This document shows, piece by piece, positions 3,060 to 54,053 of a stretch of DNA of 64,000 nucleotides; within the stretch, counting starts at the first letter, position 1; every line of letters starts with the position of its first letter. Location of the stretch: contig OZ245842.1 of the NCBI GenBank assembly GCA_965228895.1, forward strand, positions 2,839,964 to 2,903,963, read 5' to 3'. The notes beneath the pieces are model-generated. The model had not been told where the DNA came from. It searched no databases and saw only the letters and a program-made list of their open reading frames with translations. Source of the DNA: Alphaproteobacteria bacterium. GTDB lineage: Bacteria > Pseudomonadota > Alphaproteobacteria > SP197. Both the position numbers and the translations under genes were made by a program.

Positions 3060-5707
<2,648 letters not shown>

Positions 5708-5711
5708 GCCG

Positions 5712-7808
5712 TTAACCTTCGATCCTGGAGAAGTCGGCCACACGGTCGAGCGCATGGCGAATACCTGATAGCAGACGCAGGCGGTTTTGACGCAAGCCAG
5801 CGTCGTCGCAATTGACAGTCACCTCATCAAAAAACGCATCGACCGGTGCGCGAAGACCGGAAAGCGCCGCCATGGCATCGGCGAAACGTTCTTCGTTCAG
5901 GGCCTCATCAGCCTGACTTGCGGCCTCCGCGAGCCCGGCGACAACGGCCTTTTCTTCGTCCTCTTCAAGCGCGCTCGTGTCGACGTTGCCATCATAGACG
6001 ACGCCGTCCTTCTTTTCCTCGATCTTCACGATGTTGCCGGCACGCCGATAGGCGGTCAGCAGGTTGGCGCCGTCCTCGCTCGCCAGGAACGCGCCCAACG
6101 CTTCGACCTTGGCGAGCAGGCGCACCAGATCGTCTTCACCGCTTTGTGCAAACACCGCATCAATGAGGTCGTGACGCACGCCCTCGCCGCGCAGATGCAC
6201 CTTCAACCGGTCGGCGATGAAGGCGAGTAGCTCGACGTTCTGCGTTATGACACCTTTGTCACGTCCCGGCCAACTGACCATCCCGCGCCCGTCGGGTTTG
6301 TACAGTTCGACCGCCAATTCAAAAGCGTCCATCAATCCAACTCGTAGTCCGTTTTCCACGACAAGTCGGATTAGACCAAGCGCAGCGCGCCGCAGGGCGA
6401 AGGGATCTTTCGAACCAGTTGGTTTCTCTTGGATCAAGAAAAACCCTACCAGCGTATCGATCTTATCCGCCAATGCGACGGCCACGCTTTCCGGTGCGCT
6501 GGGGCAAACATCGCCCGGCCCTTGAGGCGCATAGTGTTCGGCGATGGCCAAGGCGACGGCGTCATCCTCGCCGTCATGGCGGGCGTAGTAGGACCCCATC
6601 AGGCCTTGAAGATCGGGGAACTCGCCGACCATCTCGGTGGTCAGGTCGGCTTTGGCGAGGTTTGCGGCGCGGGCGGCCTTCTCGGCATCGCAATCCGGAA
6701 TCGCCTCGGCCAGCCGTCGCGCGAGCTTGATGAGGCGCGTTGTCTTGTTCGCGACCGTACCAAGCTTGGCGTGAAACACCACGGCACCCAGATCGTCGAC
6801 GCGATCTGCAAGCTCCCGCTTGCGGTCCTGATCCCAGAAATGACGGGCGTCTGCGAGGCGCGCGTTCAGCACCCGCTCGTTGCCGCCGGTGACCGTCTTG
6901 CCGTCGTCGAGGCCCGGCGCGTTGGCGGCAAAGATGAAACGCGGCGCGAGCTTTCCCTGCCTGTCGCGCACCGGCAGATAGCGTTGGTGGGAGGTCATGG
7001 AGCTGACCAGGACTTCCGGCGGCACTTCCATGAAGGCATCGTCGAAGGAGCCCATCAGCACGACCGGCCACTCGACCAGGCCGGCGATCTCGTCGAATAG
7101 GCCCTTCGGCGCGTCGACGGCAAGGCCGGCCTCTGTCGCCAGACGCGCCGCGCCCTCTTCGACCAACGCGCGCCGCTCGCCGCCTTCGAGCACGACCTTG
7201 GCCTCGCGCAGTTTCGTCTCATAGTCGGCGAACCCCGATACCGAAAACGCGCCGGGCGCCAGGAACCGATGCCCCTCGGTCTCGTCGCCCGATGTCACGG
7301 GACCGAAGGCGAACGGCACGACGGCGCCGTCGAACAGGGCGGTGATGCGGTGCATGGGCCGGACCCAGCGTTCGTCATGATCGCCCCAGCGCATGGATTT
7401 CGGCCACGGCAGCGCGGCCATGGTGGCGGGCAGGATCTCGGCCAGCACCTCGCCGGTCGCCCGGCCCTGACGTTCGACCACGGCGAACCAGCAGGGACCC
7501 TTGTCAGTATCGCGTTCGACGAGGTCGCCGGCGGCAATCCCGGCGGAGCGCGCAAACCCTTCGACCGCCTTGTCCGGTGCGCCGACCTTCGGGCCCTTAC
7601 GCTCTTCCTTCAGGTCTGGCTGGCTCGCTGCCAGACCGTCGATCACGAGGGTCAGCCGGCGTGGCGTGGCGAAATGGCGCGCGGGCTCGTGCTCAAGCCG
7701 CGCCTCGCCAAGCGCCTTGGTAACAAGGTCCGCAAGATCGCCCGCGGCGCGTTCCTGCATGCGCGCGGGGATCTCCTCGGAGAAGATTTCAAACAGAAGC
7801 TCAGCCAT
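5712..7808 (-). CDS. glyS: Glycine--tRNA ligase beta subunit
   Basis: 698 aa beginning '[18 protein letters not shown]'. The product has the canonical GlyS length and N-terminus. It overlaps glyQ by 8 nt and lies 4 nt upstream of ppdK. Confidence 0.9.
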
Positions 7809-11854: not shown

Positions 11855-13012
11855 ATGGGTCACGTCAACGACATGCTCGAAAAGCGCCGCGAGTTTCTCG
11901 CGGGCAAGATAAACCGGCGCCAATTCAACCAGGCGCTGGCGGCGGTCGGACTGACGACCACCGCATTCCCGATGCACGCGGCGATGGCGCAAAGCGGCGA
12001 ACACCCGACGGTCTTCACATGGTCGGGATACGAGGAAGAAGCCTTCATCGCGAGCTATGTGAACCTGCACGGCACCGCGCCCGACTTCTCGTTCTTCGCC
12101 GACGAGGAAGAAGCCTATGCCAAGTTGCGGTCGGGCTTCCCGGCGGATGTCTTGATGCCGTGCACCTATAAGGTTCCGCCGTGGTACCGGGCCGGCCTCT
12201 TGGCGCCGATCGATACGTCGAGACTCACCCACTGGAACGATATCGTACCGAGCCTGAAGGAAATTCCGGGTACGGTGTTCGACGGTGAGCACTATTTCGT
12301 GCCGCAGGATTTCGGTTTTACCGCCATCACGTTCCGTCACGACCTGGCACCTGAGTATCTGGAGCCTGAGAACGCAAGCTGGGGTTTCCTTTGGGACACC
12401 AACTATGCCGGTCGCTTGGCAATGATCGACAGTCTGATCGACGGTGTCGCCGTCGCGTCAATCTATGGCGGCTACAACCCGTTCGACATGAACGAGCTTG
12501 AGATCGAAGGGACGAAGAAACTCCTGCAGGAACAGCTGCCTCTGCTGCGCTACTACGCAGGCGGTATGTCAGACGTCGAGCAGTCCTTGGCCGCGGGTGA
12601 ACTGGTCGCCTCGGCAACGTGGAACGGCTCGCGCATCCGTCTGACCGAACAGGGCGTTCCCGTCACCTTCATGAAACCGGACCAACCGGCCCTGAACGGT
12701 GAGCCCCAGGGTCCGATGACCTGGGTCTGCGGCATCTGCCTGTCGGCGACCATGGATCCGTCACTCGAACAACAGGCTTATGACGTGATGGACGCCTATA
12801 TGTCGCCGGAAGCCGGTGTCTATGAAGTCACCGAGTGGGCCGCCGGCCACGCCAACAACAGGGTCTATGAAATGATCGATGAGCAGCAGCTGCTCGATTA
12901 TGGCTTGGCGAAAAACCCCGACGAGGTCCTGGCGAAGGGCATCTTCCAGGAAGAAATGAAACAGGAAGCCCGGCTGCAGGAAATGTTCGAAGAAGTCAAA
13001 GCCGGCATGTAA
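11855..13012 (+). CDS. Periplasmic solute-binding protein (PotD/PotF-like), Tat-exported; orphan paralog 1
   Basis: The Tat motif 'KRREFLAG' is followed by an h-region ending 'AMAQ'. Motifs 'FTWSGYEE' and 'DSLIDGVAVASIYGG' are shared with the ORFs at 13198 and 37005. Confidence 0.7.
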   Translation: MGHVNDMLEKRREFLAGKINRRQFNQALAAVGLTTTAFPMHAAMAQSGEHPTVFTWSGYEEEAFIASYVNLHGTAPDFSFFADEEEAYAKLRSGFPADVLMPCTYKVPPWYRAGLLAPIDTSRLTHWNDIVPSLKEIPGTVFDGEHYFVPQDFGFTAITFRHDLAPEYLEPENASWGFLWDTNYAGRLAMIDSLIDGVAVASIYGGYNPFDMNELEIEGTKKLLQEQLPLLRYYAGGMSDVEQSLAAGELVASATWNGSRIRLTEQGVPVTFMKPDQPALNGEPQGPMTWVCGICLSATMDPSLEQQAYDVMDAYMSPEAGVYEVTEWAAGHANNRVYEMIDEQQLLDYGLAKNPDEVLAKGIFQEEMKQEARLQEMFEEVKAGM

Positions 13013-13197: not shown

Positions 13198-14367
13198 ATG
13201 AAAAATCTTGATGTTAACCGCATCTGTGACGGTATCCGCGAAGGCAAGATGTCGCGTCGCGAAATCCACACAGTGCTTGGTGCCGTTGGTTTCGGCCTGG
13301 CTGTCGTGCCGCTGACCAAAGGTGCACAAGCCCAAGAGATTGCCGCCGCAAGTTGTGGTGATGGTCATCCGATGACATTTACTTGGTCGGGCTACGACGA
13401 AGTTAACTTCCACAAACAGTACATCGCCGAGTACGGCTGCGCTTCGAACTTCACCTTCTGGGGTGACGAAGAAGAGGCCTTCGCCAAGATGCGGGCGGGC
13501 TTTGAGCCCGACGTCATGGCGCCGTGCACCTACGAGCTGAACCGCTGGTTCAATGCCGGCCTTTTGGCACCGATCGACACGTCGATGCTGTCGAACTGGG
13601 ATCAGATCATCCCGGCACTGAAGGAAGTGGATGGTTCGATTCAGGGCGGCAACCGCGTGTTCGTGCCAATGGATTGGGGCCAAACCTCCGTCACGTTCCG
13701 CACCGATCTGGCGCCGGAGTATGTCGACGTCGAGAACCACACCTGGGGCATCCTGTGGGATCCCAAGTATGCCGGTCGCCTGTCGATGATCGACAGCTTG
13801 ATCGACGGTGTCGCCGTTGCATCGATCTATGCCGGCCTTGAGGACCCTTACGACCTTTCCGACCCCGCCGATATGGAAACGACGGCCAATTTGCTGCGCG
13901 AACAGCTTCCGTTGCTGCGTTACTATTCCAACACCATGTCGGACGTCGAGCAGTCGCTGGCCTCCGGTGAGCTGGTTGCCGCGGCAACGTGGAACAGCTC
14001 GATCGTCGCGCTGCGCGGCCAGGGCCTACCGGTCATGTTCATGCAGCCAAAGGAAGGCGCGATGACATGGGTGTGCGGTCTGGTCCGTCATCCCTCCAAC
14101 GACGGCAGGGGCGAAGAGCAGATCGAGAAGGCGCATCAGATCCTCGACTCCTATCTCAGTGCCGAAGCCGGTGCGTGGGAGATCATCAACTACGGTTACG
14201 GTCACGCCAACCTCGGCGCCTACGAAATGGTGAGCGAAGAAGAGCTCGCCGAGCGTGGTCTGTCGAAGAACCCGGACGACCTGCTGGAAACCGGTATCTT
14301 CCAGGTGGAGATGACACCGCAGCAAGATATCCAAACCATGTTCGAGGAAGTCAAAGCCGGCATGTAA
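13198..14367 (+). CDS. Periplasmic solute-binding protein (PotD/PotF-like); orphan paralog 2
   Basis: Carries an 'SRREIHTVLGAVGFGLAVVPL' signal sequence. It shares 'FTWSGYDE' and 'DSLIDGVAVASIYAG' with paralog 1 and is roughly 55-60% identical to it by eye. Confidence 0.7.
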   Translation: MKNLDVNRICDGIREGKMSRREIHTVLGAVGFGLAVVPLTKGAQAQEIAAASCGDGHPMTFTWSGYDEVNFHKQYIAEYGCASNFTFWGDEEEAFAKMRAGFEPDVMAPCTYELNRWFNAGLLAPIDTSMLSNWDQIIPALKEVDGSIQGGNRVFVPMDWGQTSVTFRTDLAPEYVDVENHTWGILWDPKYAGRLSMIDSLIDGVAVASIYAGLEDPYDLSDPADMETTANLLREQLPLLRYYSNTMSDVEQSLASGELVAAATWNSSIVALRGQGLPVMFMQPKEGAMTWVCGLVRHPSNDGRGEEQIEKAHQILDSYLSAEAGAWEIINYGYGHANLGAYEMVSEEELAERGLSKNPDDLLETGIFQVEMTPQQDIQTMFEEVKAGM

Positions 14368-21694: not shown

Positions 21695-22588
21695 TCAGGC
21701 CGCCTTTTCCGCCAGCACCTTCGCCATGGTTGAGCCAAGCTCGGCCGGGCTTGGCGCCACGGCAATGCCGGCTTCCTTCAGGATCTCGACCTTTTCAGCG
21801 GCGCTTTCGCCGAATGCCGAGATGATCGCGCCAGCATGGCCCATCTTGCGGCCCTTCGGCGCGGTCAGGCCGGCGACATAAGCCACCACCGGCTTCGACA
21901 TGTTCTCCTTGGCGAACTGGGCGGCCTCGGCTTCCTGGGGACCGCCGATCTCGCCGATCATCATGACCGCGTGGGTTTCCGGATCCTGCTCGAACAGCTC
22001 CAGGATGTCGCGGAACGAGCTGCCGTTGATCGGATCGCCGCCGATGCCGACGCTGGTCGAAATACCGATGCCGAGATCCTGCATCTGCGACGCCGCTTCA
22101 TAACCCAGCGTGCCCGAGCGGCCGACAATACCGATATTGCCCTGGGCATAGATGTGGCCGGGCATGATGCCCATCATCGCCTTGCCCGGGCTAATGACGC
22201 CGGCGCAGTTGGGTCCGATCAGACGCATGCGCTTCTCGTAGCGGTAGCGACGCATATAGCGCTTCACATGCATCATGTCCTGGGCCGGGATGCCGTCGGT
22301 GATGGAGACGCAGAAGCTGATGCCGGCGTCCGCGGCCTCCATGATCGAGTCCGCGGCAAACGGCGGCGGCACCAGCACCAGACTGGCTTGCGCGCCGGTC
22401 TCACGCACCGCGTCCTTGACCGTGTTGAAGACCGGCTTGCCCAGATGGGTGGTGCCGCCTTTGCCCGGCGTCACCCCGCCGACCACGTTGGTGCCGTAGT
22501 CGATGGCTTCCTGGGCATGGAAGGTGCCGGTCTTGCCGGTGAAACCCTGCACGATGACCGGTGTCGTTTCGTTGAGAAGAATGCTCAT
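21695..22588 (-). CDS. mtkB: Malate--CoA ligase (malate thiokinase) alpha subunit; SucD paralog
   Basis: The core 'MSILLNE...GGVTPGKGGTTHLG' resembles SucD. The insertion 'QDMMHVKRYMRRYRYEKRMRLIGPNC' is absent from E. coli SucD but present in MtkB as I recall it. The gene is adjacent to sgaA. Confidence 0.65.
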   Translation of the reverse strand: MSILLNETTPVIVQGFTGKTGTFHAQEAIDYGTNVVGGVTPGKGGTTHLGKPVFNTVKDAVRETGAQASLVLVPPPFAADSIMEAADAGISFCVSITDGIPAQDMMHVKRYMRRYRYEKRMRLIGPNCAGVISPGKAMMGIMPGHIYAQGNIGIVGRSGTLGYEAASQMQDLGIGISTSVGIGGDPINGSSFRDILELFEQDPETHAVMMIGEIGGPQEAEAAQFAKENMSKPVVAYVAGLTAPKGRKMGHAGAIISAFGESAAEKVEILKEAGIAVAPSPAELGSTMAKVLAEKAA

Positions 22589-22592
22589 CGCC

Positions 22593-23771
22593 TCACCCCT
22601 TCCCCGTCGCTTGTTTCCACGCGGCGACCGCCTTGTCGGCGGCATCGGCCAGCGTGTCGGCGGTGATGATATCCAGGCCGCTGTCGTCGAGAATCTTGCG
22701 GCCCTGCTCCACGTTGGTGCCGGCCAGACGCACGACCAGCGGCACGTCGATCTTGGTCGTCGTCACCGCCTGCACAACACCCTCGGCGACCCAGTCGCAC
22801 CGGTTGATGCCGGCGAAGATATTCACAAGGATCGCCTCGACGCCGTCGTCAGACAGCACAAGGTTGAACGCCTTGGTGACGCGCTCGGGCGAGGCGCCGC
22901 CGCCGATATCCAGGAAGTTCGCGGGCTCGCCCCCGGCATGCTTGATCATGTCCATGGTCGCCATGGCAAGACCGGCGCCGTTGATGATGCAGCCGATATT
23001 GCCGTCCAAGCCGACATAGCTGAGACCGCGGTCGGCGGCATCGCGCTCGCGGATATCCTCCTGCGACTTGTCGCGCAGCTCCGAGACGTTGGGACGGCGG
23101 AACAGCGCGTTGTCGTCGAAGGTCATCTTGGCGTCGAGTGCCAAGAGGTGTCCGTCGACAGTCACGACCAACGGATTGATCTCGACCATCGTCGCGTCGA
23201 GATCGGTGAAGGCGCGGTAGCAACCCTGCAGGATCTGCGTCATCTGCGCCACCTGCGCGGTGTCGAGCCCAAGCCCAAAGGCCATCTCGCGCGCCTGGAA
23301 CGCCTCCATACCGATGGCCGGATCGACGCTTGCGCGGATAATCGAGTCGGGTTTCTCTTCCGCGATTTCTTCGATCTCCATGCCGCCGGCGGCCGAGGCC
23401 ACGACCATGATGCGTTCGGATTTGCGGTCGAGCACGAGACCCAGATAGATCTCGCGGTCGAACGGCGTCGCTTCCTCGACATAGAGCCGGTGGATCAATT
23501 TGCCGCGCGGTCCCGTCTGGATCGTCTCCAGGCGTTTGCCGAGCAACGCGTCGGCGGCGTCCCAGACTTCGTGCTGGTCGCCGCACATCAAGACGCCACC
23601 GGCTTTGCCGCGCGCGCCGCTGTGGATCTGTGCCTTGACGACCCAGCGTTCGCCGCCCAGTTCCTGCGAACGATAGGCAGCCTGTTCAGGGCTGTAGGCA
23701 AGCCCGCCTCGCGGCACGGGCACACCGAAGTCGGCCAAGAGTTCCTTGGCCTGATACTCGTGAATGTCCAT
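22593..23771 (-). CDS. mtkA: Malate--CoA ligase beta subunit; SucC paralog
   Basis: Begins '[20 protein letters not shown]' with an ATP-grasp fold. It lies 4 nt upstream of the alpha-subunit gene. The assignment to Mtk rather than Suc rests on the partner-gene signature and the sgaA linkage. Confidence 0.6.
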
Positions 23772-23823
23772 CTGTCCCCTCCCCGGACCCGCCATAAAGG
23801 CGGGCGATGTTTAACCGGGCTTT

Positions 23824-25029
23824 TTACTCGGCAGCTTGCGCTAGCACCTCGCTGCCTTCCCGGTACCACGATTGGGCGGCGGCGACACCCGATCCCAATT
23901 CTACGGCAATGCCCGCATCGCGCATCGCCATTTCAGCACCGGCGATAGCACTGATCAGCATCAACTCGGTGACACTGCCCAAGTGGCCGATGCGAAATAC
24001 CTTACCTGAAAGCTGCGCCAGGCCGGTGCCCAGCGACAGACCGTAACGGTGGTAGGCGCCGGTGATGACCGCGGTCGCATCCCCGCCTTCGGGGACACGG
24101 ATGGCGCTGACCGTGTCAGACCGCCACTGCGGTCCGGCCGAAACCAGCTCCATATCCCAGGCCTGGACGGCACGACGCACGCCTTCGGCCATGCGGTAGT
24201 GGCGGGCGAAGACGTTGTCGAGCCCTTCTTCCAGCAACAGGTCGAGCGAGGCGCGCAGACCGCGCATCAGGCCGACGGCGGGCGTATAGGGGAAGAAGCC
24301 GCTGCGATTGAGCGTCAGCATGGCGTCGAAATCGAAATAGCACCGCGGCAGTTGCGCCGACTTTGCGGCTTCCAGACCACGCTGGCTGACGGCGATCAGC
24401 GCCAGGCCTGGCGGCAGCATGAAACCTTTCTGCGAACCGCTGACCGCGCAATCGACACCCCACTCGTCCATGCGGAAATCGATACTGGCGATCGAGCTGA
24501 CGCCGTCGACGAACAGCAGGGCCGGATGACCGGCGTCGTCGAGTACGCGGCGCACGCCGGGAATGTCGCTGGTGACACCGGTCGCCGTCTCGTTGTGACA
24601 GGCGAGCACCGCCTTGATCTCGTGGCCTTTGTCGGCGCCAAGGATGTCGGCGAACTGATCGAGCGGCACGCCTTCGCCCCACGGCACGTCAGCGGTGACG
24701 ACCTCAAGCCCCAGGCGCTCACACATCTCCGCCCATAGCATGGAGAACTGGCCGAAGCGGCTGGTCAGCACCTTGTCGCCCGGCGACAGCATGTTGGTCA
24801 GCGCGGCTTCCCAGCCGCCGGTGCCGGATGCCGGAAAGATCAGGGCTTCGCCGGTCTCGGTCTTGAAGACGCGTTTCAGGTCTGCAAACAGCGGCAGCGT
24901 GAAATCGGGGAAGTCGGGCGCCCGCTGGTCCTCCATGGGAACATCCAGCGCGCGGCGCACCGCTTCGGGAAGGTTGGTCGGGCCCGGAATAAAAATCGGG
25001 TTCTGGGTCGGCATGGCCAGCACTCCCAT
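23824..25029 (-). CDS. sgaA: Serine--glyoxylate (class V) aminotransferase
   Basis: Contains 'IFIPGPTNLPE', 'LLFVDGVSSIASI' and 'VFRIGHLG' together with 'GSQKGFMLPPGL'. This is an AGXT-family PLP enzyme. Confidence 0.7.
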   Translation of the reverse strand: MGVLAMPTQNPIFIPGPTNLPEAVRRALDVPMEDQRAPDFPDFTLPLFADLKRVFKTETGEALIFPASGTGGWEAALTNMLSPGDKVLTSRFGQFSMLWAEMCERLGLEVVTADVPWGEGVPLDQFADILGADKGHEIKAVLACHNETATGVTSDIPGVRRVLDDAGHPALLFVDGVSSIASIDFRMDEWGVDCAVSGSQKGFMLPPGLALIAVSQRGLEAAKSAQLPRCYFDFDAMLTLNRSGFFPYTPAVGLMRGLRASLDLLLEEGLDNVFARHYRMAEGVRRAVQAWDMELVSAGPQWRSDTVSAIRVPEGGDATAVITGAYHRYGLSLGTGLAQLSGKVFRIGHLGSVTELMLISAIAGAEMAMRDAGIAVELGSGVAAAQSWYREGSEVLAQAAE

Positions 25030-25080
25030 CGCGAGTCGTCAAGGGAATCGCCCTATAACGACTCGCGTGACTTCCTACTA

Positions 25081-25260
25081 GGCAAACCAATTTACAAGTA
25101 GGAAACAGGCAGATTCGGGCGCGTTTTGGATTGAAACAGACCAATTTCGTGGTGATCTGGGCCGAAAACCGCACTTCTCGGATCGCGCCAGACACCAACT
25201 AGACCAAACATGCGAATCGGATTCGTTTGCCGACCAATTTAGACCGAGCCCTAAGGTGGC
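25081..25260. promoter_or_regulatory. Upstream region of sgaA with three GACCAATTT-type direct repeats
   Basis: AAACCAATTTACAAG, AGACCAATTTCGTGG and CGACCAATTTAGACC are spaced roughly 70 to 80 bp apart. A fourth, weaker copy reads ACACCAACTAGACC. The region is noncoding. Confidence 0.4.
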
Positions 25261-25288: not shown

Positions 25289-25428
25289 CTAGAGCAGATC
25301 CCGTTTTGATGGAATCGCTTCGCGATGCCGTCAAGACGGGTGAATCCGCTCTATTCATCGATAGAGAGCGGATTCACGCCGTTAGGGGGAACCGTCAAAC
25401 GGTTCCCCCTAACGACGATCCGCTCTAG
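25289..25428 (+). repeat. ~140-bp structured intergenic repeat element, copy A
   Basis: This copy is about 85% identical to the element at 38598..38737. It has terminal inverted repeats (CTAGAGCAGATC...GATCCGCTCTAG) and internal hairpins, including TTAGGGGGAACCG-tcaa-ACGGTTCCCCCTAA. Confidence 0.7.
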
Positions 25429-25646
25429 CCCTTGGAATCGCTGGAGAACATGCGTTCGATCCGAACGGCAACGGCATCCAAGACGGAGAGCACCAGGAAG
25501 AAGACAAGAATGATGGGCAGGTATTTGAAATCGCTGACAAAGGTGCCCTTGATCTCGTCCTCCATCAACGGCCAGGCCTCGTACCCGCCATAGGCGAGAC
25601 CCGCGGTAACAATCGCGGCGAGGACGACGCGCAGCATCCAGGTCAT
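25425..25646 (-). CDS. Small membrane protein (74 aa), last gene of the five-gene operon
   Basis: Reads 'MTWMLRVVLAAIVTAGLAYGG...YLPIILVFFLVLSVL' with two predicted helices. Its start lies 2 nt after the TGA of the upstream gene. Confidence 0.45.
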   Translation of the reverse strand: MTWMLRVVLAAIVTAGLAYGGYEAWPLMEDEIKGTFVSDFKYLPIILVFFLVLSVLDAVAVRIERMFSSDSKG

Positions 25647-25648
25647 CG

Positions 25649-26434
25649 TCAAAAGACCTCGGCCGACGACAGGTCGACCTTGAAGACGAGAATATCGTCG
25701 CGGCGCTCGACCTCGCCTTCCAAGCTCACGCGAAGCGCAACGAGGTCGTAGTAGGCGTCCGGCAACGGTCCGCCGTCGGCATTGGCGAGCCACATGAAGT
25801 TCATGCCCTCGATCTCGCCGGTCGTGACGAACACGGGCGGCACGCCTCCCAAGAGACAGAGATCCGCGCAGGCCAGATGCGCCAGACCGTTGCCTGGGCG
25901 CATCGCGCCGGCGTAGCACTTGCCGTCGCAGATCTCGCCTTCCAGGCGCCAGTAGCCGAGCGATTCAGCGGCGGCCGGCGTGAAGTTCTGCTGGTCGGCG
26001 GTGAGCGTCGCCGCCGTCGGCGTCAGCTTCATGTTGTTGACGCCGCCGCGCACCACCAGCATGTCGAGTTCGCCGCGCCTGAGGAAGAAACCTTCGATAT
26101 CGACGATCTGGCCATCGAGCGGTTCGGCCGCGTTCATGACGCCCCACTTGCCCTGTCCGGTCAGCGGAATGGCGCGGGCTTCCTGATCACCGTCCGGCAT
26201 GACACGCAGGATCGGATAGGGCTGCAGTTCCACAATGCCGGTCAATGTCTTCAAGTTCGCCGCGCCGCCGATGAAACGGCCGTTGCCCGGGTCTGCGGTA
26301 CCGGCGCCAAGCGCAAATGCGACCACGGCGGCGATAACCAGAAGCGAGCCGGCGACAGCCGCCAGAAAAGCCATCAGGCGCGGCGGCACCTTGCGGGAAT
26401 ATCCGATGAAAAAGTCGTCATGCGAACTGGCCAT
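25649..26434 (-). CDS. Membrane-anchored periplasmic protein (hypothetical)
   Basis: 261 aa with an N-terminal anchor 'LMAFLAAVAGSLLVIAAVVAFAL'. It is co-directional and tightly spaced with the di-heme-b/Rieske gene. Confidence 0.5.
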   Translation of the reverse strand: MASSHDDFFIGYSRKVPPRLMAFLAAVAGSLLVIAAVVAFALGAGTADPGNGRFIGGAANLKTLTGIVELQPYPILRVMPDGDQEARAIPLTGQGKWGVMNAAEPLDGQIVDIEGFFLRRGELDMLVVRGGVNNMKLTPTAATLTADQQNFTPAAAESLGYWRLEGEICDGKCYAGAMRPGNGLAHLACADLCLLGGVPPVFVTTGEIEGMNFMWLANADGGPLPDAYYDLVALRVSLEGEVERRDDILVFKVDLSSAEVF

Positions 26435-26436
26435 GG

Positions 26437-27495
26437 TTAGGCCTCTCCAATCGTCACCGGCTCGATAAAGGTGCCGGGCGCCAATGGGTTGGGATCAAGC
26501 AGGATGCGCGACCCGTCCAGTTTCAAACGATAGGTCGGGATCTTCTCGGTGAACGGTGCGGGCGCGCAGCCATCGGCCGGGTTGTATTGGAAACCGTGCC
26601 AGGGACACGTGACGCAGCCGCCGATGATGCGGCCCTCGCCCAGCGGCCCGTTCTGATGCGCGCAAACATTGCCGACCGCCGAGAGTTTGCCGTCATAGCG
26701 GAACACGGCGACACGCTCGCCGTCTGTCAACGGCACGACGATCGCCTGGTTGTTGGGGATGTCGTCGACCTGGCCGGCTACCAGCCATGAACCGTCGCCC
26801 GCGCTTGTCGCAGCCCGGCGGTCGCGCCGTCTCTCCGCCAACGCGGCAGCCAGATGAAGTCCGACGACAGCGGTCACGCCGACGGCGACGATCAGCGGCA
26901 GCACCGGCCCGGTCTCCGCCTGCAACGCGCCGAACGCGATGTGCAGCACGATCGCGAGATAGGCCGCATAGACCAGCATGTGGATCGCCTTCCACACCGG
27001 CGGCGTCAGGAAACTCAGCCAGAAGTCATGACTGGTCACCGCCATGATGACGAGGATCAACAGAGCGAAGATGCCGAACGCCTCGAACGGGAATCCGAGA
27101 AGCTGATCATAGTTGGTGTTGGTGCCCAGCACCGCGACGTACTTGTCGAAGAACGGGCTGAACGAAAAGTAAATGCCGATGACGAAGCTGGCATGGATCA
27201 GCGCGACGATGCAGGTGATGACGCCGAAGTGGCGTCGATTGTAGACGAGCGGCAGGAAACGCCGATCGAGGCGCGCCAATGGACCGAGACACAAGATCAG
27301 ACTGAGCATCAGGAAGGCGCACGACCCGAACGCGCGCGCCTTGTAGATATTCCCGCTGACCGGCCGCGTCGTCGATTGATAGGCCGGCGCGATTTCCAGG
27401 AACATCCAGATGTAAACGAAGACACCAACCAACAAGACGGCGTCATAGATGATCTTGTTGCTGTTCCAGAGAACCGGCTGATAGCGCGCGCTCAT
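26437..27495 (-). CDS. Ferric-reductase/YedZ-like di-heme-b transmembrane domain fused to a C-terminal Rieske [2Fe-2S] domain
   Basis: The start is trimmed to 'MSARYQPVL', with a GGAGG ribosome-binding site. Four transmembrane histidines (ALIHASF, VTSHDFW, KAIHMLV, IVLHIAF) are present. The Rieske ligands are 'CAHQNGPL...(15)...CPWHGF'. Confidence 0.65.
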   Translation of the reverse strand: MSARYQPVLWNSNKIIYDAVLLVGVFVYIWMFLEIAPAYQSTTRPVSGNIYKARAFGSCAFLMLSLILCLGPLARLDRRFLPLVYNRRHFGVITCIVALIHASFVIGIYFSFSPFFDKYVAVLGTNTNYDQLLGFPFEAFGIFALLILVIMAVTSHDFWLSFLTPPVWKAIHMLVYAAYLAIVLHIAFGALQAETGPVLPLIVAVGVTAVVGLHLAAALAERRRDRRAATSAGDGSWLVAGQVDDIPNNQAIVVPLTDGERVAVFRYDGKLSAVGNVCAHQNGPLGEGRIIGGCVTCPWHGFQYNPADGCAPAPFTEKIPTYRLKLDGSRILLDPNPLAPGTFIEPVTIGEA

Positions 27496-27653
27496 GGTGT
27501 GGATGCCTCCGCAGACGGCGCTTCGATTCGTTCGGCGCGGGTCTCCAGCGGCCCTTGCTGGCGGACCACCATGGCAACAAAAATGACAAGCGGCAGCAGA
27601 ACCGCAAGCGTCATCCAGATACGGGCATGGGTTCTTCGATGACCACGCTTCAT
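27492..27653 (-). CDS. Small ORF (~52 aa, single TM), translationally coupled
   Basis: Reads 'MKRGHRRTHARIWMTLAVLLPLVIFVAMVV...'. Its ATG overlaps the TGA of the upstream gene (ATGA), and its own TGA overlaps the ATG of the Rieske gene. It is not in the ORF track because it is shorter than 60 aa. Confidence 0.3.
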   Translation of the reverse strand: MKRGHRRTHARIWMTLAVLLPLVIFVAMVVRQQGPLETRAERIEAPSAEASTP

Positions 27654-27865
27654 GACGGCCTCGCGCGTTCAAGCGCCATCCAGCGCAACAAAACGAGCGG
27701 CCACAAGACGATGCAGCCGGGTATCAACAGCGCGCGAAACACATACGAGCCGCGCGCACCCGGTTCGACACGATCAACGCCAATAATCAGAAATAGGGCC
27801 GCAACCCCAAGACCGACCCAGAAATAGATCTGGACGATCTGGATGATAAGGCTCGCCGTTTCCAC
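27650..27865 (-). CDS. Small membrane protein (71 aa), first gene of the operon
   Basis: Reads 'METASLIIQIVQIYFWVGLGVAALFLIIGV...LIPGCIVLWPLVLL', two predicted helices. Confidence 0.4.
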   Translation of the reverse strand: METASLIIQIVQIYFWVGLGVAALFLIIGVDRVEPGARGSYVFRALLIPGCIVLWPLVLLRWMALERARPS

Positions 27866-31116: not shown

Positions 31117-31193
31117 CGGAGTGTAGCTCAGCCTGGTAGAGCACCGTCTTCGGGAGGCGGGGGCCGGAGGTTCGAATCCTCCCACTCCGACCA
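31117..31193 (+). tRNA. tRNA-Pro (anticodon CGG)
   Basis: 77 nt. The acceptor stem CGGAGTG pairs with CACTCCG. The D-arm is GCTC/GAGC. The anticodon stem CCGTC/GGCGG encloses the loop TTCGGGA. The T-arm GGAGG-TTCGAAT-CCTCC has the GTTCGAATC signature. A discriminator A and a genomically encoded CCA follow. Confidence 0.85.
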
Positions 31194-38158: not shown

Positions 38159-38554
38159 ATGATGTTGAAGGGGACTTGCCTTTGCGGCGCGGTGCGCCTT
38201 GAGGTCAGCGGACAGCTGGAACGCCTGCCCGAAGCGTGCCACTGCTCCCAATGCCGCAAGCAGTCAGGTCACTTTCTTGCAGCCGTCAACGTGCGGCGCA
38301 CGGAACTGTCGATTCTCGGCGGCGACAAGGTCACCTGGTATCGGTCGTCCGACAAGGTGCAACGTGGATTCTGCTCCGTCTGCGGATCGTCCCTGTTCTG
38401 GAACCCCACGATTGAGGGCTACGAATACACGGCTGTGGCAATGGGATTGTTCGATTCGCCAACCGGCAGCCGTATCGCCAAGCACACTTTTGTCGCTGAC
38501 AAAGGCGACTACTACGACCTCGATGACGACATCCCCCAAAGCGAGAGCTACTGA
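38159..38554 (+). CDS. GFA-family protein (glutathione-dependent formaldehyde-activating / CENP-V-like Zn-binding)
   Basis: The Cys ligands are 'CLCGAV', 'CHCSQC' and 'CSVCGSSLF'. Confidence 0.7.
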   Translation: MMLKGTCLCGAVRLEVSGQLERLPEACHCSQCRKQSGHFLAAVNVRRTELSILGGDKVTWYRSSDKVQRGFCSVCGSSLFWNPTIEGYEYTAVAMGLFDSPTGSRIAKHTFVADKGDYYDLDDDIPQSESY

Positions 38555-38597
38555 GTCGATCATCATTGGACATTCGCCCCGAGCCCGGCTATCCGGG

Positions 38598-38737
38598 TTA
38601 GAGCAGATCCTGTTTTGATGAAATCGCTTCGCGATGCCAGCAAAGCAGGTGAATCTGCTCTACTCATAGATAGAGAGCGGATTCACATGGTTAGGTGGAA
38701 CCGCCAAACGGTTCCACCTAACCATGATCCGCTCTAG
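38598..38737 (+). repeat. ~140-bp structured intergenic repeat element, copy B
   Basis: Same orientation and architecture as copy A. Compensatory changes preserve each hairpin: CCTGT...ACAGG here versus CCCGT...ACGGG in A, and TTAGGTGGAACCG...CGGTTCCACCTAA here versus GGGGG/CCCCC in A. Confidence 0.7.
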
Positions 38738-38764: not shown

Positions 38765-40078
38765 ATGGCTGCGTTAGCGATCGACCTGTTGCCCAAGGTT
38801 GCCTGGGGCAAGGGCATGTACATCTACGACACCGACGGCAAGCGTTACCTCGACGGATCCGGCGGGCCGGCGACTTTCTGTCTGGGCCATGGCAACGAAG
38901 AGGTCAACGCAGCGATCAAGGAACAGCTTGACCGCATCGCGTTTGGCTACCGCCATCACTTCCGCAGCGATGCCGCCGAGGAACTGCAAGACATCATTAC
39001 CGAACGCGGCGGCGGCAACCTGAAGCACTGCATCTTCACCACCGGCGGCTCGGAATCGACGGAGTCGTGTCTGAAACTGGCGCTGCAGTATCACGCGGCG
39101 CGCGGCGACATGTCACGCCGCCGCTTCATTTCGCGGCAGCGAAGCTGGCACGGCAACACGCTGGGCGCGCTCTCGGTCTCCGGCTTCCTTGCGCGTCAGG
39201 AACCTTACTTCGGCTCGTTGCTGGAAGTGAGCCACCTGTCGCCGGTCAACACCTATCGCCCGCCCGAGGGTGTCGCGCCGGAAGACGTAGCCGAATACTG
39301 TGCCAATGAGTTGGAAGATGAGATCCTGCGGCTCGGCGCCGACAAGGTTGCGGCCTTCATCTTCGAGCCGGTGGTCGGTGCCGCCGGCGGTGCTGTGCCG
39401 GCGCCTGACGGTTATGCCAAGCGTATCCGCGAGATCTGCGATCGCCATGGCGTCTTAATGATCTCCGATGAAGTGATGTGCGGCGTCGGACGCTGCGGCA
39501 CGTGGCGCGCCTTGGAGCATGACGGGGTCGAGCCGGACATCATGGCGATTGCCAAGGGCCTGGGCGGCGGTTATCTGCCCCTGGGTGCAGCGGTCTATAC
39601 CGACAAGGTCGCCGAGCCGATCAACCGGGTGCACGGCATGCCGATCACCGGCCATACCTTCACCGCCCACACGACGGCGTGCGCGGCCGGCGTCGCGGTG
39701 CAGAAGATCATGATTCGCGACGGTCTGGTCGACCGTGTCGCCGAAGAAGGTCAATACCTGCGAGACCAACTGGAGTCGGCGCTCGGGCAGAACCCCCATG
39801 TCGGCAACATTCGCGGCCGTGGATTTTTCCAGGGCGTTGAATTGGTCGAAGACCGCGAAACCAAAGAGCCGTTCGCGCCGGAGCATAAGATGTTCTTCCG
39901 CGTCATGCAGGAATCGGTCGAAGGCGGTTTGATCTGTTATCCGACCGGTGGCAACGTGGACGGTGTCAAAGGCGACCAGATCATCATCGCGCCGGCTTAT
40001 AACGCCACCCGTGACGAACTGGACGAGATCGTGAGCCTGCTGGTTCCGGCCATCGACCGGGCCGTCGCCTCGATTTAG
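38765..40078 (+). CDS. Class III (omega) aminotransferase
   Basis: The start is placed at 'MAALAIDLL' with an AGGAG ribosome-binding site 10 nt upstream; the ORF opens at 38747. The PLP-binding region is 'ISDEVMCGVGRCGT' with Lys in 'AIAKGLGGGYLPLGA'. Confidence 0.8.
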   Translation: MAALAIDLLPKVAWGKGMYIYDTDGKRYLDGSGGPATFCLGHGNEEVNAAIKEQLDRIAFGYRHHFRSDAAEELQDIITERGGGNLKHCIFTTGGSESTESCLKLALQYHAARGDMSRRRFISRQRSWHGNTLGALSVSGFLARQEPYFGSLLEVSHLSPVNTYRPPEGVAPEDVAEYCANELEDEILRLGADKVAAFIFEPVVGAAGGAVPAPDGYAKRIREICDRHGVLMISDEVMCGVGRCGTWRALEHDGVEPDIMAIAKGLGGGYLPLGAAVYTDKVAEPINRVHGMPITGHTFTAHTTACAAGVAVQKIMIRDGLVDRVAEEGQYLRDQLESALGQNPHVGNIRGRGFFQGVELVEDRETKEPFAPEHKMFFRVMQESVEGGLICYPTGGNVDGVKGDQIIIAPAYNATRDELDEIVSLLVPAIDRAVASI

Positions 40079-48729: not shown

Positions 48730-51282
48730 TCAGTTTCGATACTCCTCGGGGATGAAGAGCAGCGAATCCACCTCGGCGCCAATATGACAGTCGATGCAGA
48801 ACGCCACCTTTTCTGTACCCTCCCCGTTTGTGGTGCCGACAGTCTTGCCGTTGGGCATGATCAGGGTGTAGCGCCAGTCATCGGAGTCGGCGTTAAATCC
48901 CGAAGCCATCTTCTCCATGACAAACAACGGTCCGGGCACCACCGTGCCCTTTGCCGTCACCGCGAAGCTGTCCTTGGCCAGCACGGCACCAGCAGGCATG
49001 GTGCCGCCGTTTTCGTACTCGCCATATGACTGCGCCGCTGCGGCGTCAGCGTAATTGTTCACGAAGCGTCCGCCGTGGGTGTACGACTTGTAGGGCACGG
49101 AGTTGTACTTTTCCCATCCGCTGTAGGCGGACGAGATGTCAAGACCGGTGCTGGACATCAAATTGGCCTTGGCATAGCCGACTTCCATCTGCGCCTTGAT
49201 GCAGTCGTAAGCCGCCACAGCCTCGTCATTGGTCAGTTCGATGTCGACGCCGGCACCGCAGCCGCCGCACGCACCACAGCCGCCACACGCACCGCAACCG
49301 CCGCACGCACCACAGGCTCCACAAGCACCACAAGCACCACAGCCGCCACACGCACCGCAGCCACCGCAAGCGCCACAGGCTCCGCAAGCGCCGCAGGCCG
49401 AGCAGGCATCGCAGGCACTGCAGCCCGCCGCCATGCCGGCCGCAGGAACCGCCTCCGGATTCTCCTGCAAGCTCGCGCCGCAACCGCCGCACGCGCCACA
49501 GGCACCGCACGCGCCGCAGCCGCCACAGGCTCCGCAATCGGCCCAAGCGATGCTCGGCACCACGCAACCGGTGTCGGCTTCTGCCGCACAACCGCCGCAT
49601 GCACCACAACCACCGCACGCGCCACACGCTCCGCAAGCACCACACGCGCCGCAGCCACCACAGGCTCCGCATGCACCGCATGCACCGCATGCACCGCATG
49701 CACCGCATGCGTCACAAGCAGAACATGCGCCGCAAGCAGAACATGCGCCGCAGCCTGCCGCCATGCCGCTTGGCAACGCTTCCGGGTTCTCATGGCTGGC
49801 GCCATCTTCGTCGTCGGACCCGTCGGATTTCTCACCGCGCGGTTCCCACCAGTCCTCGCCGTCGCGTTTGGCACGCACTGCAAACTTCATGGCGCCATTC
49901 GAGTCTTCCAGGCTGGCGCCGCAACATCCACCACACGCACCGCAGGCATCACAGGCCGCGCAACACGCCGAGCACGCATCACACGCGCCGCAAGCCGAGC
50001 ACGCATCGCAGGCACCGCAGCCCGCCGCCATGCCAGTCGGCAGGGCGTCCGGATTGTCGAGGCTGGCGCCGCAGCATCCACCACACGCACCGCAGGCATC
50101 ACAAGCCGCACAACATGCCGAACACGCATCACACGCGCCGCAAGCCGAGCACGCATCGCACGCACCGCAGCCCGCCGCCATGCCGGTCGGCAGGGCGTCC
50201 GGATTGTCGAGGCTGGCGCCGCAGCATCCACCGCACGCACCGCAGGCATCACAGGCCGCACAACATGCCGAACACGCATCGCACGCGCCGCAAGCCGAGC
50301 ACGCATCGCACGCACCGCAGCCCGCCGCCATGCCGGTCGGCAGGGCGTCCGGATTGTCGAGGCTTGCGCCGCAACATCCACCGCACGCTCCGCAGGCATC
50401 ACAAGCCGCGCAACACGCCGAGCACGCATCACACGCGCCGCAAGCCGAGCACGCATCGCAGGCACCGCAGCCCGCCGCCATGCCAGTCGGCAGGGCGTCC
50501 GGATTGTCGAGGCTGGCGCCGCAACATCCACCGCAAGCTCCGCAGGCATCACAGGCCGCGCAACACGCCGAGCACGCATCACACGCGCCGCAAGCCGAGC
50601 ACGCATCGCACGCACCGCAGCCAGCCGCCATGCCGGTCGGCAGGGCGTCCGGATTGTCGAGGCTGGCGCCGCAACATCCACCGCAAGCTCCGCAGGCATC
50701 ACAAGCCGCGCAACATGCCGAACACGCATCACACGCGCCGCAAGCCGAGCACGCATCGCACGCACCGCAGCCCGCCGCCATGCCAGTCGGCAGGGCGTCC
50801 GGATTGTCGAGGCTTGCGCCGCAACATCCACCACACGCACCGCAGGCATCACAAGCCGCGCAACATGCCGAACACGCATCACACGCGCCGCAAGCCGAGC
50901 ACGCATCGCACGCACCGCAGCCCGCCGCCATGCCAGTCGGCAGGGCGTCCGGATTGTCGAGGCTTGCGCCGCAACATCCACCACACGCACCGCAGGCATC
51001 ACAGGCCGCGCAACACGCCGAACACGCATCGCACGCGCCGCAAGCCGAGCACGCATCGCACGCACCGCAGCCCGCCGCCATGCCGGTCAAAGCACGATCG
51101 GCGATGGACAAGGAGGCGGGCATGGGAACGGCGGCCGGATTTTCGACCGCGCGTGGATTGACAAGGCGACAGCTGGCGCGACCACAAGGCGCTGCCGCAA
51201 CGCTGACGGCAAGCGCAACGCCGGCGCCCATAAAGGCCGGCAGCATCGTGCTCGACAGCAGATTACGTTTGAGTTCACTCAT
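48730..51282 (-). CDS. Secreted giant Cys-periodic repeat protein fused to a cytochrome P460-like heme domain
   Basis: A GGGAGG ribosome-binding site sits 11 nt upstream. The signal peptide is 'MSELKRNLLSSTMLPAFMGAGVALAVSVAAAP'. Eight 43-aa units 'MAAGCGACDACSACGACDACSACCAACDACGACGGCCGASLDNPDALPTG' follow, then further (CxA/CxG)n blocks. The ~165-aa C-terminus 'DDWRYTLIMPNGK...VAFCIDCHIGAEVDSLLF' has a CXXCH motif and the P460/c'-beta family pattern. The heme domain has no signal peptide of its own, so it must be exported using the N-terminal one. Confidence 0.6.
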   Translation of the reverse strand: MSELKRNLLSSTMLPAFMGAGVALAVSVAAAPCGRASCRLVNPRAVENPAAVPMPASLSIADRALTGMAAGCGACDACSACGACDACSACCAACDACGACGGCCGASLDNPDALPTGMAAGCGACDACSACGACDACSACCAACDACGACGGCCGASLDNPDALPTGMAAGCGACDACSACGACDACSACCAACDACGACGGCCGASLDNPDALPTGMAAGCGACDACSACGACDACSACCAACDACGACGGCCGASLDNPDALPTGMAAGCGACDACSACGACDACSACCAACDACGACGGCCGASLDNPDALPTGMAAGCGACDACSACGACDACSACCAACDACGACGGCCGASLDNPDALPTGMAAGCGACDACSACGACDACSACCAACDACGACGGCCGASLDNPDALPTGMAAGCGACDACSACGACDACSACCAACDACGACGGCCGASLEDSNGAMKFAVRAKRDGEDWWEPRGEKSDGSDDEDGASHENPEALPSGMAAGCGACSACGACSACDACGACGACGACGACGACGGCGACGACGACGACGGCGACGGCAAEADTGCVVPSIAWADCGACGGCGACGACGACGGCGASLQENPEAVPAAGMAAGCSACDACSACGACGACGACGGCGACGGCGACGACGACGACGGCGACGGCGACGGCGAGVDIELTNDEAVAAYDCIKAQMEVGYAKANLMSSTGLDISSAYSGWEKYNSVPYKSYTHGGRFVNNYADAAAAQSYGEYENGGTMPAGAVLAKDSFAVTAKGTVVPGPLFVMEKMASGFNADSDDWRYTLIMPNGKTVGTTNGEGTEKVAFCIDCHIGAEVDSLLFIPEEYRN
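49990..51081. repeat. Eight near-identical tandem 129-bp in-frame DNA repeats
   Basis: The period is 129 bp and the units are nearly identical, differing by about 1-5 nt each. A less regular 9-bp (CxA)n periodicity continues to about 49230. Confidence 0.85.
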
Positions 51283-51457
51283 AACCGAAGAAACCTCCCA
51301 AATATCCCAGTTGCCCTGCCCTCACGACAACGTGTCGACCGCTGCCTTTGAAAGTCGGCGAAACTATCGCCCCATAGCTCGAGGGTGCAGGGCGATGATA
51401 TCGACTGACTTCGACATGGAACCAGTGATTTCCCTTTCACGTTAGCGTGAGAATGTA

Positions 51458-52800: not shown

Positions 52801-53592
52801 TTGAAAGGTGGTGGCGCTGACGCCATCCTCACGCCCATGGCAATGACAGAAACCGCGACACCGGGCCTGGACGTCGATCTACCGCGACGGGTCCAGCTCG
52901 ATGATTTGGACCGCAGCGACCTCGAAGAGATGCTCGAGGCCGGGCGTGATGTGCTCGAATGCTACCGGGTGCTGCGCAAAAACAACGACAACGTGGTCGG
53001 CGAACTGCTGCGCGACGTCGAAACCTTCTACCAGTGGCAGCACTATCCAAAGGGTGACATCTTCGACCGGGAGACCGGCAGCCAGTTCTATTATCACGCC
53101 CACCCTAAGGCCAGCCGGCCGGGTGAGCATGGCCATTTCCACACCTTCATGCGCGCCAAAGGGATGCCCAAGGGCACCGAACCCGTCCCTTACGACGGCG
53201 ACAAGGTGTGGCCCTTGGGTCCCGATGCGCTGAGCCATCTGATCGCGATATCGATGGATCCAAAGGGGTATCCCATCGGCTTGTTCACGGTGAACCGGTG
53301 GGTCACCGGGGACACGTGGTATGCCGCCGAGGATGTGGTGAAGATGGTCGACCTGTTCGACATCGATCACGCCCGCCCCTCCTGGCCGGTCAACCGCTGG
53401 GTCACGGCGATGATGCGCCTGTTCCGTCCGCTGGTGCATGACCTCGTAAGGGAACGCGATCTGGTCATGGCGGCATGGCGCGACAGTCATCCGGGAACCG
53501 ATGTCTATGCCGACCACGGTCTTGAGATCACGTCGGCCAGCACGATTTCCGTCGAGAAGCAGATCACGCGCATCCGCAGTCTTCTCGCCTAG
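52801..53592 (+). CDS. Conserved hypothetical protein
   Basis: 263 aa containing 'YYHAHPKASRPGEHGHFHTF'. I do not recognise a characterised family. The start may be the internal 'MAMTETA'. Confidence 0.45.
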   Translation: MKGGGADAILTPMAMTETATPGLDVDLPRRVQLDDLDRSDLEEMLEAGRDVLECYRVLRKNNDNVVGELLRDVETFYQWQHYPKGDIFDRETGSQFYYHAHPKASRPGEHGHFHTFMRAKGMPKGTEPVPYDGDKVWPLGPDALSHLIAISMDPKGYPIGLFTVNRWVTGDTWYAAEDVVKMVDLFDIDHARPSWPVNRWVTAMMRLFRPLVHDLVRERDLVMAAWRDSHPGTDVYADHGLEITSASTISVEKQITRIRSLLA

Positions 53593-53643
53593 AACAGATC
53601 CCGTATTGCCGATCTGCCCGCTCCTGCGGTGCCTCAAACAAGT

Positions 53644-53680
53644 GGCGCCGTCTCCGGGAGGGGGGATCGGAGACGGCGCC
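53644..53680 (+). terminator. Perfect 13-bp stem hairpin downstream of the 52801 gene
   Basis: GGCGCCGTCTCCG-ggaggggggat-CGGAGACGGCGCC. The trailing T-tract is weak (TATTACAAAG), so this may be a Rho-dependent or structural element. Confidence 0.4.
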
Positions 53681-54053
53681 TATTACAAAGACCGAAATGA
53701 ACTGGCGAAAACCCTATTGGGGGACGGGGTGGGTTTCACCAAACCGGAGAGAATCCAGGGGAGTACATTCCCCCCGGCCTACGACGCTGCGAGTCGTCTT
53801 CCGGCCTTCCTTGCCCCAGATATGTCGATCCGAAGCCCCTTGTACAAGACCATGAATGACGCCTCGCACCGATGTGATGGAACATTGAGCGAGTTTTTGC
53901 ACAGATCACAAATTTGCCCGCTAAATCATCAGCTTCGGGCGTCTGTTCGCGTTGTTAACTGCCACGTTTTTGCCGGATTTAATGGGGCTAGAAAACCGCC
54001 GGGACTACAACCGCTTGCACAGCGCGCCATTGCGCCGGGGGAATCGGAAACGA

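Follow-up and report, generated by a model that had tools for sequence, protein, structure and literature searches.

Two similar stretches of about 140 nucleotides (nt) lie in the same orientation, at positions 25289-25428 (copy A) and 38598-38737 (copy B), in a 64,000-nt segment of an alphaproteobacterial genome (assembly GCA_965228895.1, contig OZ245842.1, positions 2,839,964 to 2,903,963; hereafter the window). The question that this locus raises comes from base changes that are paired between the copies: the arms CCCGT/ACGGG of copy A read CCTGT/ACAGG in copy B, and the 13-bp hairpin arms TTAGGGGGAACCG/CGGTTCCCCCTAA read TTAGGTGGAACCG/CGGTTCCACCTAA. A first-pass annotation of the window described these changes correctly, took them for the hallmark of a structured RNA, and named a transposable element of the miniature inverted-repeat type (MITE) as the alternative. 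Is the repeat an RNA kept by its host, or mobile DNA?

Comparison of the copies, which are 87% identical over 139 nt, with their relatives and with orthologous sites in other genomes supports the MITE by direct evidence and does not support the structured RNA. We put the probability at roughly 85% that both repeats belong to a miniature transposable element without coding capacity, found in marine Alphaproteobacteria. The evidence consists of TA target-site duplications at orthologous empty sites, many copies in many genomes, and differences between strains in presence or absence. A target-site duplication had been set beforehand as the observation that would favour a MITE, and it was found: the TA that flanks the element on both sides in the window is present only once at the empty sites in L100, L102, L103 and L098 (L numbers denote loci fetched from other assemblies).

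Insertion sites and target duplication

For the copy A region, four orthologous loci were reached via the neighbouring aminotransferase gene. Copy A is absent from the conspecific assembly L100, whose flanks are 95% identical to the window; its empty site reads ...AAGGGC-TA-GAACC..., and the window, reverse-complemented, reads ...AAGGGC-TA-[134 bp]-TA-GAACC.... The copy is also absent from the relatives L102 (the metagenome-assembled genome, MAG, PL23b_bin.48) and L103, each with a single TA (GGGC-TA-GAAC). The insertion adds 136 bp to a CTAG target whose TAG is the stop codon of an open reading frame (ORF) of 73 amino acids (aa), and this stop codon is restored by the G at the element end. 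The 140-mer first delimited has to be trimmed slightly, its outermost C and G being host target bases; the element proper is a core of 134 bp plus the duplicated TA.

Copy A is a recent insertion specific to the strain of the window, and copy B is older. The latter is present as a full copy in the conspecific L099 and as 5'-truncated orthologues in L097 (3889-3973) and L094 (1672-1754), which have lost the first box and the first hairpin (box 1 and H1, described below) at a junction, CTATC/TGCTCTA, with ATC microhomology. The copy B site is empty in L095, L096 and L098; the sequence is GGGA-TA-GGGC in L098 and GGT-TG-GGCCGC in L095, compared with GGGT-TA-[...]-TA-GGCC in the window. In L097 the loop of the second hairpin, H3, is exactly inverted, from CCAAA to TTTGG, an inversion which suggests that the hairpins form in DNA.

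The figures given here for anatomy, covariation and targets come from an alignment of 90 copies, with some counts made over 91. Inferred targets among the 90 copies are CTAG (43), TTAG (14), CTAA (14) and TTAA (2), and YTAR accounts for 81% of the inferred targets versus 12% when every NTAN site of that DNA is counted. Duplications of 3 or 4 bp (TAG, CTA or CTAG) were considered and rejected: the base just outside the TA on one side varies independently of that on the other, which leaves a 2-bp TA duplication as the only one that agrees with all copies. Altogether 37 element ends overlap a stop codon belonging to a neighbouring gene, 18 of them at one end and 19 at the opposite end. With a target that is often a TAG or TAA stop codon and an element that starts with G, the stop codon is rebuilt upon insertion, an example of how a transposon can occupy the very short intergenic spaces of a GC-rich genome without killing genes.

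The MITE has a 134-bp core that inserts at TA and duplicates it, with a strong preference for 5'-YTAR-3' and mostly for CTAG. In the mechanism that we propose, a transposase supplied in trans would bind four nearly invariant boxes and mobilise the element, and the TA duplication together with the CTAG preference points to a DDE enzyme, probably of the IS630/Tc1-mariner type or of the IS5 (IS427-group) type. The folded unit may be needed for propagation, or else the palindrome may be mechanically corrected, and the element would have no dedicated RNA function in its host.

Anatomy and fold of the element

The alignment shows four nearly invariant boxes of the TAGAGCRGATC type in the order + - + -: box 1 (TAGAGCAGATC), the inverted box 2 (GTGAATCTGCTCTA), box 3 (TAGAGCGGATTCAC) and the inverted box 4 (GATCCGCTCTA). 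Hairpin H1 lies between boxes 1 and 2, hairpin H3 between boxes 3 and 4, and a spacer of ~12 nt occupies the middle of the element. Boxes 1 and 4 form the terminal inverted repeats, TAGAGCAGATC ... GATCCGCTCTA; a 12-bp terminal repeat had been proposed, and such a repeat does exist, although only 11 of its 12 positions are complementary and one is an A.C mismatch. In each half of the element, U1 and U2, a variable stem-loop stands between the outer box (TAGAGCRGATC) and the inner box (GTGAATCYGCTCTA), the outside boxes being of the GATC type and the inside boxes of the GATTCAC type. U1 matches the reverse complement of U2 at 47 of 64 positions without gaps in copy B, and in 47 of 66 aligned columns in copy A, so that the element is an inverted dimer of one ~64-nt palindromic unit. 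These units are near-perfect palindromes with loops of 3-5 nt, the boxes themselves are not palindromic, and a solo U1 unit is found at L080 4418-4483. Apart from mechanical ORFs of 40-49 aa within the palindromes, the 134-bp core contains no ORFs.

Both strands of both window copies fold far better than shuffled sequences (-82 to -96 kcal/mol, z ~ -11 to -12), and a four-way junction and a fold of two hairpins are nearly equal in energy. The four-way junction, which pairs box 1 with box 4, is the minimum-energy fold of copy A and lies near the model of the first-pass annotation; it was rejected because at the diagnostic position the termini are unpaired, with an A.C mismatch, in 88 of the 90 copies, whereas boxes 1:2 and 3:4 form Watson-Crick pairs with compensated swaps. 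At this position box 1:box 2 has A-U in 79 copies against G-C in 2, and box 3:box 4 has G-C in 87, with one A-U copy and one C-G copy (the swaps are illustrated by L019, L041 and L044). The evolutionarily supported fold is thus that of two separate long hairpins, U1 and U2, which for the subfamily consensus and for copy B has the lowest energy as well. The arms of a third hairpin proposed earlier find better partners in the termini than in each other.

Divergence within the close subfamily (27 copies) amounts to 0.4-3.7% in the boxes, 11-12% in the stems, 14% in the spacer and 28% in the H3 loop. The spacer contains, on the minus strand of the element, a site resembling that of integration host factor (IHF; WATCAANNNNTTR); 14 of 91 copies match it with no more than one mismatch, versus 0.8% of shuffles. 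The match always falls in the same place and on the same strand and is clearer in L060, L029, L073, L067, L025 and L017; both window copies have it with 2 mismatches by hand count. The inner boxes and the H1 apex hold three to four conserved GANTC sites (e.g. 25343-25347, 25371-25375 and 25312-25316), with GATC instead in the outer boxes. GANTC is the methylation motif of CcrM in Alphaproteobacteria.

Compensated stems and competing explanations

The covariation itself is real and very extensive. Compensatory changes were found in 29 of the 40 pairs predicted by RNAalifold, no shuffle reached the observed covariation score, and paired cells of the alignment make up 91-92% under either full model, compared with 79% in shuffles and 27-42% when partners were slid by 1-3 columns. 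Both sides have changed in 12 of 13 pairs of H1 and in 16 of 18 pairs of H3, and within the close subfamily H3 shows 42 compensated doubles versus 34 singles, where independent change of the two sides would give about 7 doubles. The intermediates are biased by strand. On the + strand of H1 in the close subfamily, U.G occurs at 11 positions (53 cells) versus A.C or C.A at 3 positions (3 cells), and the 5' arm has C almost only where the partner is G. H3 leans weakly the opposite way (9 G.U cells, 12 A.C cells), and since U2 is an inverted U1 the wobble pattern of H1 and H3 is mirror-symmetric.

As a hallmark of RNA, however, covariation fails here. An equal pattern is reported for mobile DNA hairpins, the REPINs (PMC3116915), and at fixed loci the pairing decays. 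The same-site copies L049/L046 and L084/L007 differ by six single-sided stem changes and by no compensated one, and the orthologues of copy B in L097 and L094 show a deletion, uncompensated substitutions and the inverted H3 loop. Pairing is kept in multiplying lineages and lost at fixed loci; compensation among multiplying copies together with decay at fixed loci indicates that the structure serves the spread of the element and not a host RNA.

A structured RNA under host selection, be it a stabiliser in 3' untranslated regions, an RNase target or a small RNA, with its multicopy spread being secondary, would account for the strong covariation, for the very stable predicted folds (z ~ -12), for the U.G intermediates on the H1 + strand with almost no C.A, and for the location of most copies at gene 3' ends, 22 lying between convergent genes versus 5 between divergent genes. 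Enrichment between convergent genes is usual for intergenic mobile repeats. An RNA of this kind would be difficult to reconcile with the orientation of the element relative to genes, which is random: 36 sense versus 33 antisense for gene 3' ends that read into the element within 60 nt, 24 versus 21 for gene starts downstream of it, and 28 sense versus 21 antisense for co-directional gene pairs. The two window copies are themselves oppositely oriented to the neighbouring transcription, copy A antisense and copy B sense, and neither has a sigma-70-like promoter, an intrinsic-terminator-like site or a U-tract. No Rfam 15 family was matched either; the whole window gave only a tRNA at the gathering score, and the best sub-threshold score for copy A was 22 bits against a cut-off of 37 (E up to 10). 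Furthermore, orthologous copies gather uncompensated changes and deletions, and copy A is wholly absent from a conspecific strain. We consider host selection on an RNA a very remote explanation of these copies.

Compensation could also be a mutational by-product, in which, without selection, a change in one arm is transferred to its partner by template switching or mismatch correction within the hairpin (quasi-palindrome correction). The near-perfect palindromic units with 3-5-nt loops would lend themselves to such correction, the inverted H3 loop of L097 carries the signature of an intrastrand template switch, and the H3 doubles outnumber the singles at only 12% per-site divergence. Yet the fixed-locus orthologues, with six single-sided changes, have no corrected double, and correction should remove U.G as it removes C.A, which is at odds with the 53 U.G versus 3 C.A cells of H1. 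Correction thus offers a possible, if unlikely, account of the paired changes.

Since orientation is random, the wobble asymmetry does not come from host transcription. It suggests a step of propagation in which each unit has one of its strands folded, and a more specific idea is that the element needs a folded single strand to multiply, each unit being read 5' to 3' from its own terminus inward. We regard this as speculative and distinctly unlikely; if true, a TA-duplicating element would move via a strand-specific single-stranded DNA or RNA intermediate recognised by its shape, a pathway that to our knowledge has not been described for MITEs of the IS630 or IS5 type.

The same asymmetry bears on a relationship with REPINs or BIMEs, in which a single-copy tyrosine transposase (HUH, RAYT-type) acts on palindromic units that it recognises in their folded, single-stranded DNA form, and the two TAs would be the target and the element's own 3' end rather than a true duplication. 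Consistent with this explanation, stem sequences vary while the structure is kept and compensated changes are common between paralogues (as in PMC3116915), the units are inverted doublets of a conserved box, subfamilies with unrelated stems and common boxes occur in one genome, and the strand-specific tolerance of wobble pairs hints at folding and reading of one strand. The target, on the other hand, is symmetric, with Y before and R after the TA, which suits a dimer that works on duplex DNA; a GTAG tag is absent (G precedes TAG in 4 of 91 copies), the boxes are not palindromic, and no RAYT gene was seen within the loci examined, which cover a small part of each genome. A RAYT-type origin of the element is highly unlikely in our view.

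The preferred explanation, a MITE mobilised by a DDE enzyme, has several points to answer. The ~0.75 Mb of DNA in the window and the fetched loci contains no autonomous element or transposase with the same termini, and a search for a parent insertion sequence, by solo boxes in all loci and by Pfam on ORFs beside solo or clustered copies, returned housekeeping genes only. DDE cut-and-paste transposition needs only the terminal repeats, which leaves over the compensation of internal stems and the bias of H1 towards U.G and not C.A. The strand-specific wobble tolerance is a feature without explanation in a classical cut-and-paste DDE pathway, for whose transposases we know of no single-stranded stage. 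A single-strand transposase inserting 3' of TA an element that itself ends in TA would likewise leave TA at both ends. Finally, the search pattern required TAGAGC...GCTCTA, so the constancy of the TA is in part a product of the search; neither the empty sites nor the flank statistics depend on it.

For annotation, the element is a trap: 138-nt palindromes at gene ends in many marine Alphaproteobacteria will be mistaken for small RNAs, riboswitches or terminators by tools that rely on structure and covariation, while their paired base changes result from the palindromic design of the element itself, a piece of mobile DNA. Copy A separates two strains of one species, so the presence or absence of family members could be used as a marker, and rearrangements are likely to arise from them. 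The nested palindromes, compensated stems and wobble pattern moreover make it a tractable case for what a bacterial MITE needs beyond terminal repeats.

Genomic setting, distribution and related systems

The coordinates of the window copies, their parts and their neighbours are collected in Table 1. As annotated at first, copy A abuts the 3' end of an operon that holds a Rieske-domain gene, and copy B ends 27 nt before the ATG, at 38765, of a class-III aminotransferase gene. The operon is on the minus strand; a + strand assignment was rejected, the long + strand ORFs at 22503-25081 having no Pfam match and the real genes lying on the minus strand. Copy B is situated between a GFA-family gene (38159-38554, + strand) and the aminotransferase gene (+ strand), exactly at the junction of a rearrangement between these two. 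A motif of ~35 nt (..TGGACWTT..CCCSRGCTATCCG) lies 5' of the class-III aminotransferase gene in all relatives, and twice in L094. Two extra genes between GFA and the aminotransferase, SBP_bac_8 (minus strand) and HTH_31, are present in L094 and L098, and L097, L099 and the window have neither; in L095 the SBP_bac_8 gene is present with no HTH_31 match recorded, and no GFA gene was called in L095 and L098.

Table 1. Window coordinates of the element copies, their parts and neighbouring genes (loci other than the window are named).
Feature	Position	Strand	Remarks
Copy A	25290..25427	+	core 134 bp, 25292-25425; duplicated TA 25290-25291 and 25426-25427
Copy A, host bases	C25289, G25428		CTAG target
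Copy A, box 1 (outer left)	25290..25300	+	TAGAGCAGATC; nearly invariant in 90 copies
Copy A, hairpin H1	25300..25340	+	stem variable, covarying; apical GGAATCGC conserved
Copy A, box 2 (inner)	25340..25353	+	GTGAATCCGCTCTA; inverted box copy; pairs with box 1
Copy A, central spacer	25354..25364	+	variable
Copy A, box 3 (inner)	25365..25377	+	AGAGCGGATTCAC; pairs with box 4
Copy A, hairpin H3	25377..25417	+	stem variable, covarying
Copy A, box 4 (outer right)	25417..25427	+	GATCCGCTCTA; minus-strand end is the TAG stop of ORF 25425-25646
Copy B	38599..38736	+	core 134 bp, 38601-38734; flanking TA 38599-38600 and 38735-38736
Copy B, outer boxes	box 1 38599-38609; box 4 38726-38736	+	
Copy B, hairpins	H1 38609-38649; H3 38686-38726	+	
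Copy B, inner boxes and spacer	box 2 38649-38662; spacer 38663-38673; box 3 38674-38686	+	
Third copy, degenerate remnant	53589..53608	+	box 1 and beginning of H1
CoA-ligase beta subunit gene	22593-23795	-	left of copy A
Class-V aminotransferase gene	23824-25029	-	left of copy A; homologues 396 aa
73-aa membrane ORF	25425-25646	-	last in operon; TAG stop is the element terminus
261-aa gene	25649-26434	-	right of copy A
Rieske/ferric-reductase gene	26437-27672	-	right of copy A
Motif of ~35 nt	window 38555-38597; L094 1600-1670 and 3930-3970; L095-L099		upstream of the aminotransferase gene

The third fragment suspected in the first-pass annotation is a degenerate remnant that shares 18 of its 20 bases with copy A and begins on the TAG stop codon of a DUF6969 gene (52801-53592); 100 shuffles of the window produced no match with 3 mismatches or fewer. 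The stretch 3' of the remnant (53609-53690) contains box-like debris, GATCTGCCCGCTCCTG, and a GC-rich inverted repeat, GGCGCCGTCTCCG...CGGAGACGGCGCC, which may be the terminator of the DUF6969 gene. A profile built from the 90 copies found no further copy in the window. Elsewhere in the window there are a tRNA gene (31117-31190, + strand, 64 bits with Rfam) and a + strand ORF (49229-51445) that contains coding-type repeats with periods of 9, 18 and 27 bp (49248-49752) and a 150-bp tandem repeat (49910-51088; 7.9 copies, 96% identity); a gene without a recorded Pfam match is called at the place of this ORF in the conspecific L099. Two tandem paralogous gene pairs, 67-81% identical, lie at 61252-61841 and 62905-63494 (1653 bp apart) and at 12069-12678 and 13433-14048 (~1364 bp apart).

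A search for TAGAGCRGATC-N(100-130)-GATCYGCTCTA in one genome per species yielded at least 93 stretches, and the matches listed are nearly all from Pelagibius, Aquibaculum, Kiloniellaceae, Rhodospirillales and unclassified alphaproteobacterial MAGs; Pelagibius and Aquibaculum are placed in Rhodovibrionaceae by NCBI. A few matches in Actinomycetota and Anaerolineales had no significant nhmmer match to the element profile (E <= 0.001) and look like chance agreement of the termini alone. From the window and the fetched loci nhmmer recovered 94 full and 6 partial copies, copy A scoring 165 bits. At least 33 of the full copies are from the MAG PL23b_bin.48, which among the matches listed also holds all of the closest copies (115-160 bits), and whose housekeeping proteins are 95% identical to those of the window. 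Several subfamilies with unrelated stems and common boxes coexist in one genome.

Some loci contain several related elements within 8 kb (L086 1-140, 2006-2144 and 6672-6775; L041, from a Rhodobacterales MAG, 3795-3933 and 5701-5839), in some of which the unit order is swapped or the first unit is very short. Acidisoma cellulosilyticum (L008 3044-3200) has half units as well as palindromic units of 50 bp that stand singly and carry the same box (TAGAGCAGATC-hairpin-GATCTGCTCTA), by which the box family extends beyond Rhodospirillales. Copy A had no blastn match among the 72,556 plasmids of PLSDB, a collection that includes rhizobial megaplasmids; the inner-box pattern had none in viral contigs, and a literature search for the box sequences returned chance primer matches only. 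Judged by Rfam, plasmids and the literature on its boxes, the family appears to be undescribed.

Among known systems, the MITEs of IS630/Tc1-mariner elements share with the element the duplicated TA, the CTAG preference, short terminal inverted repeats, the lack of coding capacity and a high copy number. IS630 inserts at the TA within CTAG (Tenzen and Ohtsubo 1991, as cited in PMC2170065), and for ISY100 30 bp from each end suffice for cleavage and transposition (PMC2170065). The element described here differs in its four boxes (+ - + -) and compensated internal stems; its termini read GAGCRGATC, and no IS630-type partner was seen within ~0.75 Mb. Elements of the IS427 group of the IS5 family, a group common in Alphaproteobacteria, make 2-bp direct repeats in Paracoccus (PMC3281130, Table 2) and are noted to have an IHF-like site at the left end (PMC3281130). 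A 2-bp direct repeat is shared by our element, as is an IHF-like site, here in the spacer of some subfamilies, but no partner of this type was seen within ~0.75 Mb. The element core starts with GAG, a possible likeness to IS5-family ends, which are typically GAG in the ISfinder family table.

The Correia elements (CREE) of Neisseria measure ~100-155 bp, duplicate TA, form RNA hairpins from their inverted repeats and carry a central IHF site, which is also present in some BIMEs. Their terminal sequence TATAGTGGATTAAC (PMC5039591) agrees with box 3, TAGAGCGGATTCAC, at 11 of 14 positions, a resemblance only, and a lead. Identity with Correia elements was rejected, the 26-bp inverted repeat that defines them not being found here; they belong to another bacterial class, their repeats are 26 bp long and not nested palindromic units, and the IHF-like match is confined to the 14 copies counted above. 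RIME and Sm-repeats are, like our element, intergenic palindromes of Alphaproteobacteria of similar size, mosaics of ~100-140 bp that have misled small RNA predictors (PMC2573895); they differ in that the plasmid collection had no sequence match for copy A. From REPINs and BIMEs the present element differs by the apparent TA duplication and the symmetric YTAR target; it has no GTAG tag, and no RAYT gene was seen in the loci examined. What it shares with them is the design, inverted doublets of a conserved motif around a variable hairpin whose structure is kept by compensated changes, in an intergenic element that can persist in a lineage (PMC3116915).

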